Shown piece after piece: positions 23,101 through 29,100 of a stretch of DNA of 64,000 nt. This DNA is from Candidatus Izemoplasmatales bacterium. Its GTDB lineage: Bacteria > Bacillota_I > Bacilli_A > Izemoplasmatales > Hujiaoplasmataceae. The position numbers were made by a program. The stretch's first letter is position 1, and every line of letters starts with the position of its first letter. The stretch lies in contig JBMNEZ010000001.1 in NCBI GenBank assembly GCA_050949045.1, positions 832,001 through 896,000 on the forward strand, in the 5' to 3' direction.

Positions 23101-26100
23101 AAATCACGTAGAACGAAGAAACGGTCCTCAAGCCTCAACTTGTCGAAGATTTCCCTGAACTCATTGCGATCGACATCCTTGAAAAAACCATTGACGAGCA
23201 TGTCAAGCACTTTTTTGATCAGCGGGTCACGCTCATAAAGATCCAAAGGCCGGTAGGCTCCTTTTTGGCTGAGCTCGCCGACCTCTGCCGCCGAGAGGCC
23301 GAAGATGAAGATATTGTCGTCGCCGACGAGCTCGTGGATCTCGACATTGGCTCCGTCTTCGGTGCCGATCGTGAGCGCTCCGTTCATCATGAATTTCATG
23401 TTGCCGGTGCCGGAGGCCTCCTTGGAGGCGGTCGATATCTGTTCGGACAAGTCGCAAGCGGGCATGATCACTTCGGCATAGGAGACATTGTAGTTTTCGA
23501 CAAAGACGACCTTCAGGAAAGAATTGGTCTCTGGGTCATTGTTGACAAGGGTTTGGATCGTATTGATCAATTTGATGACTTTCTTGGCAAAATAATAAGT
23601 TGACGCGGCTTTCGCCCCGAAGATGAAGGTGTGGGGAACATAGTTTTGCCGAAAACTCCGATCAGTTTTAAGGCGGTCGTAGAGATACATGATGTGAAGA
23701 GCATTCAGAAGTTGACGTTTGTATTCATGAAGCCTTTTGACCTGGATGTCAAACAGCGAATCCGGATCGAGTTCGAGTCCCTGCTCGGCAAAGATCCTCC
23801 GAGCCAGCGCCGCTTTCTTCTTGCGCTTGACAATAAGAAACGCTTTTTGGAGAGCGAGATCGTCCTTGTGGCTCTCGAGCTGCGCGAGTTCGGCGGGATT
23901 CCTCCGCCATTTTGGGCCGATGTGGCAATCGAGCAATCCCGCTAGTTCCGGATTGGACTGGATCAGCCAGCGGCGATGGGTGATGCCGTTGGTCACGTTT
24001 GTGAATTTTCCCGGATATAGCTCATTGAACTCCTTCATCTCGATCGTTTTCAAGATTTCAGTATGGAGTCTCGCGACCCCGTTGACGGAGAAACTCGCGA
24101 CAATGCAAAGATGCGCCATCCGGATCTGGGTGCCGTCGATAATCGCCAGTTTCCGGACCAAACCGGGATTGTTGCGGGCAAAGCCTTGTTCCAGATAGGC
24201 AACGAAACGACGATTGATCTCCTCGATCAACTGATAGATCCTGGGCAACAAGGGCTCGAGGATCCTGATCGGCCATTGTTCCAGAGCCTCCGCGAGAATC
24301 GTATGGTTAGTATAGGCGACGGCATTCTGGACGATTTTCCAGGCATCGTCCCATTCCATGCCCTCTTCATCAAGAAGGATCCGCATCAACTCGGGAATCA
24401 CCAGGGTCGGATGAGTGTCGTTGATATGGAAGACGACATGCTTATCCAAGTCTTTCAGCGAACCGTATTTCTCCTTGTGTTTCCGGCAAATCGATTTGAC
24501 ACCGGCCGAACTCAAGAAATACTGTTGCATCAACCTGAGGCGCTTGCCGTCGTCAGTCGTGTCATCGGGATAGAGGAACCCGGATATATTCCGCAATTCC
24601 TCATGATACTCATATGGGGAAATGTGCTTGGGGTACTTGCGGGAAGGCTCGGCGTTCCAAAGCCTCAAATAGTTGACGATCCGGTTATGGTCGCCGACGA
24701 TGGGAATATCGTACGGCACTGCGCGGATGAACTCGCGCGGATGGTATTCCATTTTGCCATTGTATTCCACATGCCCGAAAAACATGACGTCTTCGGCTTC
24801 CTCTTCCCGCCTGATCTCGAAGACATAGCCGTCGGAAAGCCAGTTGTCGGGACGCTCCTCCTGATAACCGTTCTTGATTTTCTGGCGAAAAAGGCCGTAT
24901 TGATAGCGAAGGCATTGTCCAAAACCCGGCAAACCGAGCGATGCCAACGAATCGAGAAAACAGGCCGCCAAGCGGCCAAGGCCGCCGTTGCCGAGTCCGG
25001 GATCGGATTCATAGATCTCGACTTCGTTCAAGTCAATGCCGAGCTCGTTGAACGCCTCGTTGACAACATCCCAAAGACCCAGATTCATCAGATTGTTGGT
25101 GATGAGCCTGCCGAGCAAAAACTCGATGGAAAAATAATGGACGATTCGACCGTCATTTTGCTCGAGCAGTTCGTTGGTCTTAATCCAGTCAAAAGCGATA
25201 TGTTCCCTGACTAGCGTCCCGAGAACGTTGAAACGTTCTCTTACGCTCGAAAGAGAGACTTCTTTCTGGTATGTGGCGATCATTCTTGACGAGAAAGCTT
25301 CAATAAAGGCTTCTTTGGATCTAAATACAGATTGCTTCATGGGATCACACCTCGCTAATTGATGATTCAGTGGCGTTTTACGGGGTTGATGGATAGATCA
25401 ATCCTTTGAAAGCGCCATCCGGTAGAGTTCGATATAAGCTTTGGCCGTGTCTTCAGGATAAAAGCTGGAATTCATGGCATTGATGATCAACTGGCGCCAG
25501 ACGTGGGACGATGAATCAAAAATGTTGAGCGCATTCTCAATCTGGAAGATCAGATCGCGATGATCGTAGTTGTAGAATTTAAAGCCGTTTCCGCGTTTTG
25601 TGACTGCGTCAAACTGCTCAATCGTATCGTTCAGCCCACCGGTTTGTCTGACGATCGGGATCGTTCCGTACTTGAGAGCGATCATCTGGCTGGTCCCGCA
25701 CGGTTCGTAGCGGGACGGCATCAAGAAGGCATCCGCCCCGGCATAGATGTACGACGGTTCGGTCGAGTTATAGCCGATGTTCAGAGCAACTCTGTTTTTG
25801 TAGCGCTCGCCGAGTTGCTTGAGGCGGTTAATGTAGTTCTCGTCGCCGCTGCCAAGAATGACGAATTCGACCTTGGGATTCTTCAAGACCTCATCGATTG
25901 CCGGCAACAAGATGTCGAAGCCCTTTTGTTCAACGATGCGGCTGACCATGCCGATGACGAAGTACCCCTCGCCTTCGATGAGCCCCATCCTTTTCTGCAA
26001 GTCGAGCTTGTTCTTCTTCTTGGCGTCGAACACATTCACAAGCGTGTACTTCTCAGCGATGGTCAGATCCTTCCCCGGATCGATCTCCTCGTCAAGGCCG

Positions 26101-29100
26101 TTCAGGATGCCGTAGAAATCGCGGTCCCGCCGGTTGAGCGCTTCAACGAGATTCTTGGCATAATAGGCGTAGCGGAGTTCGTCACGGTAAGTCTCGGAAA
26201 CCGTCGTGATCAAAGAAGCGGTTTGAATGCCGATCTCTAAAAAGTTGATCTGTTGGAGGTTCGGCCACATGGATTCGATGCCAAGTCTGGCGAGGATCGT
26301 AGCGTCGTGGACTCCTTGGTATTCAACATTGTGGATCGTCAGGATGGTCTTTATCTTTCGATAACGTTCATCGTTCTTCAAGAGCCACGGCAACAGCCCC
26401 AGATGCCAATCATGGAAATGGATGATGTTGGGGACATCCTCAAAAACATCGAAAAAAGATAGCGCCGCCTTGGCGAAGAAGGCAAAACGGTCACCGTCGT
26501 CCTCGTATCCGTACAGACGATCGCGATCAAAGAAATCGTAGGCTTCAAGAAAATAAAAGTCGATGTTCTGATCGGTGTAGTGATAGAGTGAAACGCGGTG
26601 AGATTCGTTCCCATACGAAACTTGTCGTTCGGCCTTGAGTTCCAAAAACAGTTTAAACTTTTCTTTGATCCCCGAATACAGCGGCAACATCACCGCCGAA
26701 GGGAATCCGAGGGTAGCGTATTTGCGGGCAAGCAAGGCGACCACATCCGCCAAGCCGCCGGTTTTTGCGAAGGGATGGCATTCGGAGGTAACCTGCAAAA
26801 TCATCAGTTTTTGTCCGCCGGCAACGATCTGTTTCTTTTCGGACAAATACAATTGGTTCAGATCGCCGCTAACGATGGCTTCCTCCTTGACTATTGTCTG
26901 CTTGTCGAGAACCGCATACTCGACTTGGGCGTTTGCCTCGATCACGCACTGGTTCATGATGACGGCGTTTCTAACGACGGCCCCTTCCTTGATAACCGCC
27001 TTTCTGCCGATGATCGAGTTTTCGATTTGTCCGTGAATCACAGCTCCGGAAGCGATGATGCTGTTTTTTACCAAAGCGTTTTTTCCGTATCTCGCCGGCG
27101 CCGACATCGTCTCCTTGGAATAGATCGGCCGGTCCGGGCAGAACAACCGCTCCCGCGTTAATGGCATCAATAGCCGCATATTGACCTCATAGAAGGTAAA
27201 CGGACTGTCGATCAGATAGCAGTCGGAAGAAAACTCGAAATGGTGTTTCTTGATATTTGTCGCATAGTCGAAAACATCAGAGAGATTGCGAAACGGGAGC
27301 GTGTCATAACTTGTGATGTAATCCAGCAATAATTTCTTTGATAGGATGAAGGTTTTGATTCTCCGGTTGTCGTCGCTTAAGATCTCGGTGAGATCGGCTT
27401 CGGAAGCGAGATGCTCATCAAGGAGCATGCGATAATCGACATTCCAAACCAGATTGGCCGGAGAAACCATGGCGTAGTCCTGAGTCGACCGCAAGAAGTA
27501 CTCAAGGTGCTCGTACATCCTTTGAAAACTGATGGAATCCTCGAAAGTCAACGACATGGTCTTCGGAGGCAGGATGAAGATTCCGTCTTTCCGGCGGTTC
27601 AGGTCCCAACGGTCGCCCGATCCGATATGGTCGGCGAGCGAACGGTAATTGCCGTAAGGAAAAATCGCAACATTTGTGACATCGGAGTTCTTGCAGTTTG
27701 AAAGGGTGAAGTCGATCAATCGGTATTTGGCCCCAAAGGGAAGCGCTCCCGGAATCCGGTGGCGACAGAGCTTGTTGAAAGAGCCCTTGCTAGAGGCGTC
27801 GACAACCACGAACATATTAGCCATGTCGTTCGCCTCCTTGTCCCGAGGATGACTCAAGGTCACAAAGAGAGACAACCTCGGGCGTGAATCGGAATCCTTC
27901 AGGCAAAACTTGGTTGCGGTTCACGATCGCGTTTCTGATAACGGCATTTTTACAAATGCGAACTCCCGGAAGAATGACCGAATCCTCGATGATCGCGCCT
28001 TCCTCGACGATTGTCTTATACCCGATTGTCGAATGGATGACAGTCCCATTGATGATCGAACCGTCGGCGATCACGGAATTTACGATCCTGGCTTTATCCA
28101 ACACAATATGCGGAGGAAGATTCAGGGATTTTGAGTAAATCGGCAAGTTTCTTGATATGTTCAATGTCAAAAAATCAGGGTCATCGAGTAGATCCATATT
28201 CACTCGGTGAAGCGATTCGACAGTACCGACATCAGCCCAATAATCATCGAACTCGTAAACTGCGACATGGCGTTTTTCTTTTAGTGCTCGCGGAATGATG
28301 TTTTTCCCAAAATCGAAATCCGCTTCCGGGTTCGCCTCATTCAACATTGTTTTTAATACATCGGTGTTGAACAAATAGATTCCCATCGAAGCCATATTCG
28401 AGCGTGACTTCTTTGGTTTTTCCTGAAAGTCGATCAGTCTTTTTTCCGAATCGATTGTCATTATCCCGAAACGGGATGTCTCTGTTTCCTTCACTCTGGT
28501 TCCCGCGATCGTGATCTCGGCTCCGATTTCCTTATGGAAAGAAAACATCCGGTCATAATCCATCTTATAGATATGATCGCCGTAGAGGATCAATACATGC
28601 TCAGCGGCGTTTTCGGTGATGAAATTGAAGTATTGCTTGACGGCATCGGCGGTTCCCCGCTGCCAGAGAATGGTTTCATTCGTAGCGTAAGGCGTGAGAA
28701 AGCAGAGCCCCCCATCAATATTGTCGAGATCCCAGGAAGCTCCCGAGCCGATATAAGCCATCAATTCCTGTGGCTCGTATTGTGTGATTATGCCAACGAT
28801 ATCGATGTTGCTATTGGCGATGTTTGACAAAGTGAAGTCGATCAACCGATACTTCCCGCCAAAAGAAACAGCCGGCTTGGCGAGATCGCGGGTGATGCCC
28901 GCGAGCCTAGTTCCCTTGCCGCCGACCAAGATCATCGCAATCAGATCTTTTCTCAAATCAATCGCCTCTTTCGCCTTGATACTTGAGAATGCTGAGGGCA
29001 AACGGCCCGACCACCAATTCGATCGCCTGATTCTGACGGTGGATATTTTCACTGAAAGAATGCAGGGGGAGACCGTTGTATTGTCCGGATCCGCTGTAGA

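Follow-up and report, generated by a model that had tools for sequence, protein, structure and literature searches.

A glgD-glgA fusion in the glycogen operon of Izemoplasmatales and a possible tether between pyrophosphorylase and synthase

Bacterial glycogen synthesis is taught as the work of two free enzymes, of which the pyrophosphorylase is the control point. We examined a locus that raises the question of whether the two steps can also be carried by one polypeptide, and what such a joining would do. The window is the whole stretch of DNA analysed, 64,000 nucleotides of contig JBMNEZ010000001.1 from a Candidatus Izemoplasmatales bacterium, and all coordinates refer to it unless stated otherwise. 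The host is a wall-less bacterium of small size.

The fused frame and its operon

The survey's finding was that glgD and glgA form one 808-aa frame, and the ORF call, the translation, Pfam and NCBIfam all bear this out. The frame runs on the minus strand from ATG 27824 to a stop at 25398-25400, encoding 808 aa plus the stop. Pfam placed NTP_transferase at residues 19-146, Hexapep_GlmU at 247-322, Glyco_transf_5 at 342-564 and Glycos_transf_1 at 618-767, the same four ranges as had been given before. The protein therefore has two parts, a GlgD-type subunit and a fully equipped glycogen synthase. A longer frame from TTG 27875 (825 aa) finds no support, as the orthologues begin at the ATG position. 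The features of the operon are as follows.

28958..30835, minus strand: glgB, branching enzyme, first gene of the operon (NF003811 814.4 bits, cut-off 741; Pfam)
27817..28956, minus strand: glgC1, catalytic ADP-glucose pyrophosphorylase subunit (NTP_transferase 211 bits, NF003670 448.6 bits)
27833..27837, minus strand: GGAGG ribosome-binding site, seen in the sequence 8 nt upstream of the fusion ATG
25398..27824, minus strand: glgD::glgA fused ORF (ORF call and translation, four Pfam domains, two NCBIfam matches)
22926..25340, minus strand: glgP, glycogen phosphorylase, 57 nt downstream of the fusion stop (PF00343 989 bits, TIGR02093 1067 bits)

The operon order is thus glgB-glgC-[glgD::glgA]-glgP, and the Pfam and NCBIfam matches confirm the neighbours named in the survey. 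The open frame of glgC1 spans 27817-29052; its probable start is TTG 28956, which gives 379 aa, has AAGAGG upstream and corresponds to the residue where the glgC1 orthologues begin. The TAA stop of glgC1 overlaps codons 2-3 of the fusion (an 8-nt overlap), and glgC lies directly upstream of the fusion in every locus with sufficient flank. The GGxGxRL, KPAV and FxEKP motifs of GlgC1 are invariant across 13 orthologues. We also recovered the second, unfused glgA2-glgC2 pair that had been reported elsewhere in the genome, at about 614.6-617.3 kb (G000:C1) and accompanied by no GlgD.

The operon logic glgB-glgC-glgD-glgA-glgP is shared with the GlgC/GlgD systems of Firmicutes (Geobacillus stearothermophilus, Streptococcus mutans, Ruminococcus albus). 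There, however, GlgD (342-390 aa) is made as a protein of its own and glgA follows as a distinct gene, whereas here the GlgD C-terminus continues into the synthase.

The two halves and their junction

Within the fused frame three parts can be told apart.

26820..27824, minus strand: GlgD half, residues 1-335, a degenerate nucleotidyltransferase domain with a left-handed beta-helix (TIGR02092, alignment, Foldseek)
26805..26819, minus strand: junction, residues 336-340 (GGQKL), the place taken in unfused relatives by the glgD stop plus a spacer of 3-5 codons
25401..26804, minus strand: GlgA half, residues 341-808, a complete GT5 ADP-glucose-type glycogen synthase (TIGR02095, alignment, Foldseek)

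Residues 1-335 match the NCBIfam family TIGR02092 (GlgD) at 252.1 bits in our search, above the curated cut-off (236.6); a deletion in the GlgD half splits the match in two. The deletion removes about 35 aa after residue ~150 and with them the FxEKP region, the sugar-phosphate-binding hairpin; GGxGxRL is replaced by other residues. Therefore, the assignment as GlgD stands, but the description of this half as a full GlgD does not, as it is a short type with some 35 residues fewer in the sugar-phosphate-binding region. Both motifs are retained in the two GlgCs of the same genome (GlgC1 and GlgC2). Foldseek comparison with AGPase chains indicated a pyrophosphorylase fold (TMt 0.60-0.72). Judged by its motifs, the GlgD half is a predicted non-catalytic, catalytically dead pyrophosphorylase subunit. 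The GlgD of Firmicutes is itself described as an inactive but modulating subunit that forms heterotetramers with GlgC and raises catalytic efficiency (PMC9093745). Unfused Bacillaceae-type GlgD shares this deletion and these motif losses, which are therefore older than the fusion; this short group probably includes the characterised Geobacillus heterotetramer type.

The other half matches TIGR02095 (GlgA) at 451.8 bits (cut-off 328.45), with residues 341-802 covering positions 2-475 of the 477 in the profile, and aligns to residues 3-474 of the E. coli glycogen synthase. K354, G356, G357, H498, N499, R629, K634 and E707 correspond to E. coli K15, G17, G18, H161, N162, R300, K305 and E377, which we take to be the catalytic residues of glycogen synthase. 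The KTGGL loop, the HN motif, the Arg/Lys pair and the EPCG glutamate are all present, with no variation among 47 fused proteins. Superposition of 2qzs on the GlgA half by Foldseek gave a TMt of 0.89 and an rmsd of 2.2 A over 487 columns (GT-B fold). This half thus matches known GT5 synthases (E. coli 2qzs/3d1j, A. tumefaciens 1rzu) in full length, fold and catalytic residues, and it is predicted to act as an ADP-glucose-type glycogen synthase. The earlier reading of a full synthase holds, although its boundary shifts by one residue, as the internal Met lies at 341 instead of 340.

Between the halves, the junction is about 5 residues long and of near-constant length. It is free of gaps, its residues vary in sequence, and the AF2 pLDDT at residues 331-340 is ~72. 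The distance from a conserved DK to the KTGG lysine is 47 residues in 105 of 136 fused proteins, other spacings being due to extra DK matches of the search pattern. In unfused relatives with both genes in frame, the glgD stop falls at query positions 331-340 and is followed by a spacer of 3-5 codons in the same frame. The old glgA start Met is kept in just 2 of 137 fused proteins and lost in the other 135, so that no conserved internal start for GlgA was found among them. No junction stop occurred in the 27 fused loci inspected, and none of the main-clade members examined had split again. The survey had also noted an in-frame stop in one genome of the order; in-frame stops were flagged here in four of the genomes with the single frame, and these are natural C-terminal stops, none of them at the junction.

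Distribution and origin of the fusion

A single frame spanning the junction was found in 92 of 101 genomes of the order, from 3 families and 28 genera (42-77% identity), and in 57 of the 59 that are at least 90% complete. It is absent from one of the order's complete genomes (G013, completeness 99%) and from most of a genus with small genomes (g21), and is therefore dispensable. Outside the order but within the same class, the fusion occurs in 4 genomes of one family (f7) and 8 of another (f17), one of the two being Turicibacter-like; the open junction was checked directly in 10 of these 12. Conservation through the order is therefore upheld, but confinement to that one order is not. The carriers include complete Izemoplasma genomes and Turicibacter-like gut bacteria.

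We considered whether a sequencing or assembly error had deleted a stop or shifted the frame, making two normal genes look fused. An open junction in this many genomes of the order, many of them from independent assemblies and some single-contig, argues strongly against this, as do the 328 protein clusters (at 90% identity) that match the junction region. In addition, an independent DNA contig from another sample shows 0 differences over 25000-28174. A contig from an RNA library likewise shows 0 differences over 26627-26867, although such libraries can contain DNA and transcription does not necessarily follow. We regard the chance of an artefact as negligible.

Among the best 150 matches from 1.84 billion representatives, just 7 proteins span both halves, and all but one of these belong to a single clade. 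In the tree of GlgD halves the fused clade has an SH-aLRT of 99.7 (21 rows), and its sister group is the short GlgD of Bacillaceae type, which is unfused. In the tree of GlgA halves it has an SH-aLRT of 99 (17 rows) and stands apart from this genome's own GlgA2; the GlgA proteins known from bacteria are separate polypeptides of ~480 aa, whereas the fused halves form their own clade. These trees show a single origin of the main fused clade, which is old. A second, separate fusion also exists (P0008). The precursor state, glgD-stop-glgA in one frame, is common, being seen in at least 26 of the genomes listed for the class. The stop between the in-frame, nearly abutting genes was lost, and the glgA start codon decayed afterwards.

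Such a history could be entirely neutral. Stop loss between co-translated in-frame genes may have been an accident without kinetic or regulatory gain, the halves acting as if separate, and once the glgA start had decayed, reversal would take two steps, with both a stop and a start arising anew. A single mutation suffices from the precursor arrangement, with its short in-frame spacer, and the near-universal loss of the start Met, the variable and less confidently modelled junction, the separate second fusion and the complete disappearance of the fusion in G013 and g21 all fit this account. The fusion may also add little, as overlapping or abutting operon genes are already expressed near-equally. 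However, a neutral process should produce sporadic fusions often, yet those among the best 150 matches are few and nearly all of one clade; no re-split was seen in the loci inspected, and the junction keeps its length. We give neutral retention a substantial but lesser chance.

A possible tether between pyrophosphorylase and synthase

The AF2 model of the fusion has confident domains (mean pLDDT 90.2) but a pTM of 0.66. We read this as two halves that lack a confident mutual packing, with no fixed path between the active sites predicted, which also suits the neutral account. When GlgC1 was modelled with the GlgD half, the pair scored 0.88 and the highest-scoring of the 3 controls 0.01. Of 157 solved complexes, 116 attained that mark, as did 2 of 215 mismatched pairs; the score indicates likeness to solved tetramers rather than binding. 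Behind it may be a resemblance to pyrophosphorylase tetramers of known structure, both homo- and heteromeric (1yp2, 5w5r, 9xuk); no GlgC/GlgD structure was matched by sequence in the PDB copy searched. Contacts agreed 100% between runs and the partner pLDDT was 90. The predicted pairing runs through the start of the beta-helix, and the GlgD C-terminus (300-335) lies outside the interface; therefore the synthase would hang from the far end of the helix.

These models also bear on whether the GlgD half has been turned into a module through which the synthase is regulated or oligomerises, such as a metabolite sensor or a beta-helix dimerisation handle, leaving GlgC1 as a homotetramer. In favour, neither the nucleotide loop nor any of the sugar-phosphate-binding hairpin is left in the GlgD half, GlgC alone is reported to be active as a homotetramer in characterised Firmicutes (PMC9093745), and the glgA2-glgC2 pair has no GlgD. 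However, the losses predate the fusion, glgC still lies immediately upstream with overlapping stop and start, and the predicted docking of GlgC1 on the GlgD half scores far above the controls. Repurposing is thus improbable.

Since the models predict that GlgC1 binds the GlgD half, the most parsimonious interpretation is a tether between pyrophosphorylase and synthase. The GlgD half would still pair with the GlgC encoded just upstream, giving an assembly of the GlgC2(GlgD-GlgA)2 type (2374 residues) at a fixed 1:1 stoichiometry. ADP-glucose would be produced right beside the enzyme that consumes it and, since glycogen synthase binds glucan, right on the surface of the glycogen particle as it grows. 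Taken jointly, the architecture and this tethered assembly, with ADP-glucose made beside its consumer, form the explanation that we favour and hold to be probably correct; we infer the complex with GlgC, as we do any kinetic advantage or any channelling.

The closest precedent that we came upon is TreS-Mak (Pep2) of the GlgE pathway: the enzymes of two consecutive alpha-glucan steps are one fused protein in many organisms and, where they occur separately, associate into a non-covalent complex (PMC11046441). The Rosetta-stone logic is the same, two successive steps of alpha-glucan synthesis being joined, but there both partners are catalytic, whereas the dead GlgD would serve as an adaptor. According to the same review, the TreS:Pep2 structure appears to exclude channelling, which warns against assuming it for GlgD-GlgA. 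Among other glycogen-gene fusions, this 2024 review lists GlgB-MalQ of Neisseria and GlgA-GlgB of Criblamydiaceae/Waddliaceae; these likewise place neighbouring glg genes in one frame, but with other partners, and the chlamydial fusion is described as inactivating, whereas GlgD-GlgA keeps all synthase residues. A literature search found no published description of a GlgD-GlgA fusion.

A wider reading, which we offer as speculative, is that GlgD in Firmicutes generally acts as an adaptor recruiting glycogen synthase and the glycogen particle to the pyrophosphorylase, forming a metabolon. If true, it would explain why Bacillales retain GlgD despite a GlgC/GlgD enzyme reported to be insensitive to allosteric effectors (PMC9093745), and the Izemoplasmatales/Turicibacter lineage would have made a non-covalent GlgD-GlgA contact covalent.

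The public databases already hold fusion proteins, named only "glycogen/starch synthase"; this name hides the GlgD half, so pathway reconstructions will overlook glgD in these organisms. The fusion is a ready-made construct for testing coupling and gives the dead GlgD a testable purpose, and since Turicibacter-like and complete Izemoplasma genomes carry it, experimental material may exist. An order and two further families with a stable fusion provide the first genomic hint that we have found of physical coupling of both steps in bacteria, hinting that glycogen synthesis here operates as a single physical complex.

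The fused gene and its neighbours

The survey's finding that glgD and glgA form a single 808-aa frame among glgB, glgC and glgP was confirmed by the open reading frame and by Pfam and NCBIfam searches. The features of the region are the following.

22926..25340, reverse strand: glgP, neighbour of the fusion
25398..27824, reverse strand: fused glgD::glgA frame, 808 aa, from the ATG at 27824 to the stop at 25398-25400 (open reading frame and translation)
8 nt upstream of the fusion ATG, reverse strand: GGAGG (sequence)
27817..29052, reverse strand: glgC frame; the start is probably TTG at 28956, where the orthologues begin
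28958..30835, reverse strand: glgB, neighbour of the fusion
30837..31640 and 31678..32772, same strand as glgB and directly upstream of it: recX and prfB (profile searches)

The TAA stop of glgC falls within codons 2-3 of the fusion frame. Pfam domains on the fused protein are NTP_transferase (residues 19-146), Hexapep_GlmU (247-322), Glyco_transf_5 (342-564) and Glycos_transf_1 (618-767), and both halves exceed the relevant NCBIfam cut-offs, the N-terminal half that for GlgD (TIGR02092, 252.1 vs. 236.6 bits) and the C-terminal half that for GlgA (TIGR02095, 451.8 vs. 328.45 bits). Further upstream, the prfB frame covers the RF2 profile from end to end as a single frame, and the usual programmed frameshift site is not needed.

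The GlgD half had been described as full; its identity as a GlgD stands, but its completeness does not, since it is of a short type. It carries VDASSKGSFNKL at the site of the GGxGxRL loop of GlgC and is without approximately 35 residues after residue ~150, where the FxEKP segment lies in both GlgC1 (the catalytic subunit encoded directly upstream of the fusion) and GlgC2 (encoded by a second pair of genes elsewhere). GGxGxRL and FxEKP are both invariant in 13 GlgC1 orthologues. The same deletion is present in the unfused sister sequences of family f17, which belongs to the same class, and GlgDs of the Bacillaceae type are correspondingly short (342-356 aa); we therefore infer that the deletion is older than the fusion.

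The alignment of the GlgA half with E. coli glycogen synthase covers residues 3-474 of the latter. In the fusion, K354, H498, N499, R629, K634 and E707 are invariant in 47 fused proteins and correspond to E. coli K15, H161, N162, R300, K305 and E377, the catalytic residues of glycogen synthase. At least 105 of 136 fused proteins share the same spacing at the junction, the remaining counts being artefacts of the search pattern. The internal methionine reported at residue 340 is in fact residue 341. A conserved internal start that would release a free synthase was considered and rejected, as Met at this old glgA start occurs in only 2 of 137 fused proteins and no GGAGG-like site was seen before Met341 in the window sequence. 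A stretch of 35 nt within the GlgA half (26741-26775), encoding the PFAKTGGLADVV loop, also matched inside otherwise unrelated contigs in three runs, the match breaking off on either side; the loop is therefore conserved at the DNA level in glgA of other organisms from the same habitats.

The separate, unfused glgA-glgC pair that had been reported was also found, outside the window at G000:C1:614655-617341 (positions 1495-4181 of the excised locus L002). There glgC2 (411 aa, GGxGxRL and FxEKP intact) comes immediately after glgA2 (483 aa), with overlapping stop and start codons and no GlgD. A separate GlgA-only match is present in most genomes of the order, and the 1.36-Mb genome studied here holds two ADP-glucose systems.

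Integrity and distribution of the fusion

Our sample of the order comprised 101 genomes from 3 families and 28 genera. Among the matches listed (432 weaker ones lie outside), at least 92 of the 101 genomes cross the junction in a single frame, 87 of them with near-full-length matches at 42-77% identity. In the high-quality subset (≥90% complete, ≤5% contaminated) the fusion is present in 57 of 59 genomes. The nine genomes with no junction-crossing match among those listed are G013 (99% complete), G033, G075, G077, G087, G080, G086 and G090 (these last three 82-83%), and G024 (69%). In G013 and in four of the five small (~1.0 Mb) genomes of genus g21 (G033, G075, G077 and G087) only a GlgA-type match was seen and the fusion is absent; the fused operon is thus dispensable and has been lost in some lines. 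A split junction, flagged by an in-frame stop in G002, G014, G098 and G072, was rejected because the excised loci show natural C-terminal stops.

A sequencing or assembly error mimicking a fusion is excluded. A contig from another sample is identical to window positions 25000-28174, and a query with the junction (residues 200-480) returned 328 clusters at 90% identity from a collection of 5.8 billion proteins, the best 120 of which are mostly of ~800 aa with both sets of Pfam domains. A metatranscriptome library yielded a contig of 241 nt that spans the junction (26627-26867) with 0 differences, which is not proof of transcription; RNA runs yielded only short contigs of low depth at the locus. 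One of these runs (X16) holds a strain variant 95-99% identical over 25000-29100, the differences being mainly transitions. The same interval is nearly complete in metagenomes from several studies labelled anaerobic digester, bioreactor or bioreactor sludge, and 14 runs hold half or more of its words.

The fusion had been described from one order, but its distribution is wider: two further families of the class, f7 and f17, carry fusions with an open junction. Among 399 scored class genomes these number 4 from f7 (42-43% identity) and 8 from f17 (38-41%), and 10 of these 12 fused loci were re-read without finding a stop at the junction. An f17 protein used as query matched "glycogen/starch synthase [Turicibacter sp.]" at 68% identity, with one cluster of 368 members; family f17 is, we infer, Turicibacter-like. 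In two genomes of f17 genus g98 (G201 and G190, loci L034 and L035) the genes are unfused, reading glgD-TAA-glgA in one frame with the TAA exactly at the junction. Their glgD and glgA cluster with Bacillaceae-type genes, away from the f17 fusions, which suggests gene replacement or transfer within f17.

Where NCBI names are given, the junction matches are called "glycogen/starch synthase" of Candidatus Izemoplasmatales, Mycoplasmatota or Tenericutes bacteria, and JGI names them "starch synthase". Among the named records with the fusion are Candidatus Izemoplasma sp. B36, a complete genome in which the protein has 809 aa, and several metagenome-assembled genomes labelled Mycoplasmatota, "Mollicutes" or "Acholeplasmatales". 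The fusion proteins are thus already public, mis-described by name. A set of 80 listed loci, which includes no Turicibacter-like or f7 genomes and sets no bound on the distribution, held 9 fused and 70 unfused loci and 1 cut off at a contig end; the unfused ones belong to Bacillus, Priestia, Anoxybacillus, Metabacillus, Rossellomorea, Planococcus, Paenibacillus and many Clostridia. Of 17,873 matches among 1.84 billion representative proteins, the best 150, which reach down to 283 bits so that weaker-scoring fusions could be missed, include seven that span both halves: P0002-P0005 at full length, the fragments P0006 and P0007, and P0008 (854 aa). No GlgC-GlgA or other pyrophosphorylase-synthase fusion was found among these 150. 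Three longer proteins with a C-terminal GlgA (P0036, P0067 and P0110) were dismissed as such fusions, their N-termini being unrelated.

Origin of the fusion

In at least 26 class genomes glgD and glgA lie in one frame, separated by a stop and a spacer of 3-5 codons. The stop falls at query positions 331-340 in the 5 unfused in-frame relatives read, and fused and unfused junctions align without gaps. Therefore, loss of a single stop codon would suffice to produce the fusion.

Trees were inferred by rapid searches, with SH-aLRT as the sole measure of support and this genome's two GlgCs as root, after thinning of the order's sequences (11 dropped in the smaller GlgD set, 7 more in the larger). 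In the GlgD-half tree P0005 and the fusions from the order, f7 and f17 make up one clade (21 sequences, SH-aLRT 99.7; 92 in the smaller set). Its sister group combines the short-type GlgDs of Bacillaceae, Anoxybacillus and Planococcus with those of the f17 genus that is unfused (joint support 99). The GlgA-half tree likewise unites the fused proteins in one clade (17 sequences, SH-aLRT 99). P0008 stands apart from this clade in both trees, nested among unfused genes of family f10. It is a GlgD::GlgA with a long-type GlgD. Because P0008 forms a cluster of one, from a single contig of 28.9 kb, it may represent either an independent second fusion or a sequencing error. Since the two half-trees agree and P0008 is apart in both, they point to one old fusion event and perhaps a second.

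A neutral ratchet, in which the stop was lost and the start codon then decayed, agrees with this history: the origin would be easy, the junction is variable and no packing between the halves is predicted. However, although the pre-fusion state is common, very few fusions lie outside a single clade, and a return to separate genes was seen in none of the 27 fused loci read.

A possible glycogen-synthesis complex

The AF2 model of the fusion has a mean pLDDT of 90.2, falling to ~72 at residues 331-340, but a pTM of only 0.66; we therefore read it as two well-folded halves whose mutual orientation is not confident. None of the Foldseek matches listed, among them E. coli glycogen synthase (TMt 0.89) and pyrophosphorylases (TMt 0.60-0.72), had both folds in one chain.

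GlgD is inactive and forms GlgC/GlgD heterotetramers in Firmicutes, raising catalytic efficiency, and the Geobacillus pyrophosphorylase is insensitive to allosteric effectors, according to PMC9093745. When GlgC1 and the GlgD half were modelled together, the predicted complex scored 0.88, vs. 0.01 for the best of 3 controls; for comparison, 116 of 157 solved complexes attain the mark applied, as do 2 of 215 mismatched pairs. All contacts (100%) agree between runs, and the partner pLDDT is 90. The predicted contact is pseudo-symmetric, formed by the linker and first beta-helix turns of both chains plus residues 31-35, and would leave the C-terminal turns of GlgD (300-335) free. Known structures of pyrophosphorylase tetramers may account for this score, which therefore points to likeness rather than binding.

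The docking prediction, together with the overlap of the glgC stop and the fusion start, makes a GlgC/GlgD core with two synthases hanging from its beta-helix tips the most economical model. With two GlgC chains of 43 kDa and two fusion chains of 92 kDa, such a 2:2 assembly would comprise 2374 residues and have a mass near 270 kDa. ADP-glucose would then be produced adjacent to its consumer and, through the synthase's grip on glucan, at the glycogen particle. Repurposing of the GlgD domain, with GlgC binding given up, is less likely, as the glgC neighbour is retained and docking with GlgC1 is predicted. The hard-wired complex first proposed is partly supported: tethering is plausible, and channelling of ADP-glucose would be a further, conjectural step. 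In TreS:Pep2 the active sites are reported to lie on opposite faces, an arrangement that would speak against channelling. Everything beyond the architecture of the fusion is deduced from sequence and models.

No description of a GlgD-GlgA fusion was found in the full-text literature, whose coverage is without most subscription journals. In the accessible part of a 2024 Chemical Reviews survey of prokaryotic alpha-glucan enzymes (PMC11046441), "GlgD" occurs 0 times and only the TreS-Mak, GlgB-MalQ and GlgA-GlgB fusions are named; the available portion of a review on glycogen in gut commensals treats GlgD solely as a regulatory subunit. Fusion of neighbouring pathway genes is a known kind of event, but in GlgD::GlgA the synthase is, unusually, joined to a dead adaptor subunit. 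At the level of sequence, the fusion is a solid and conserved feature that hints, in a testable way, at a glycogen-synthesis complex in bacteria and at a purpose for GlgD.
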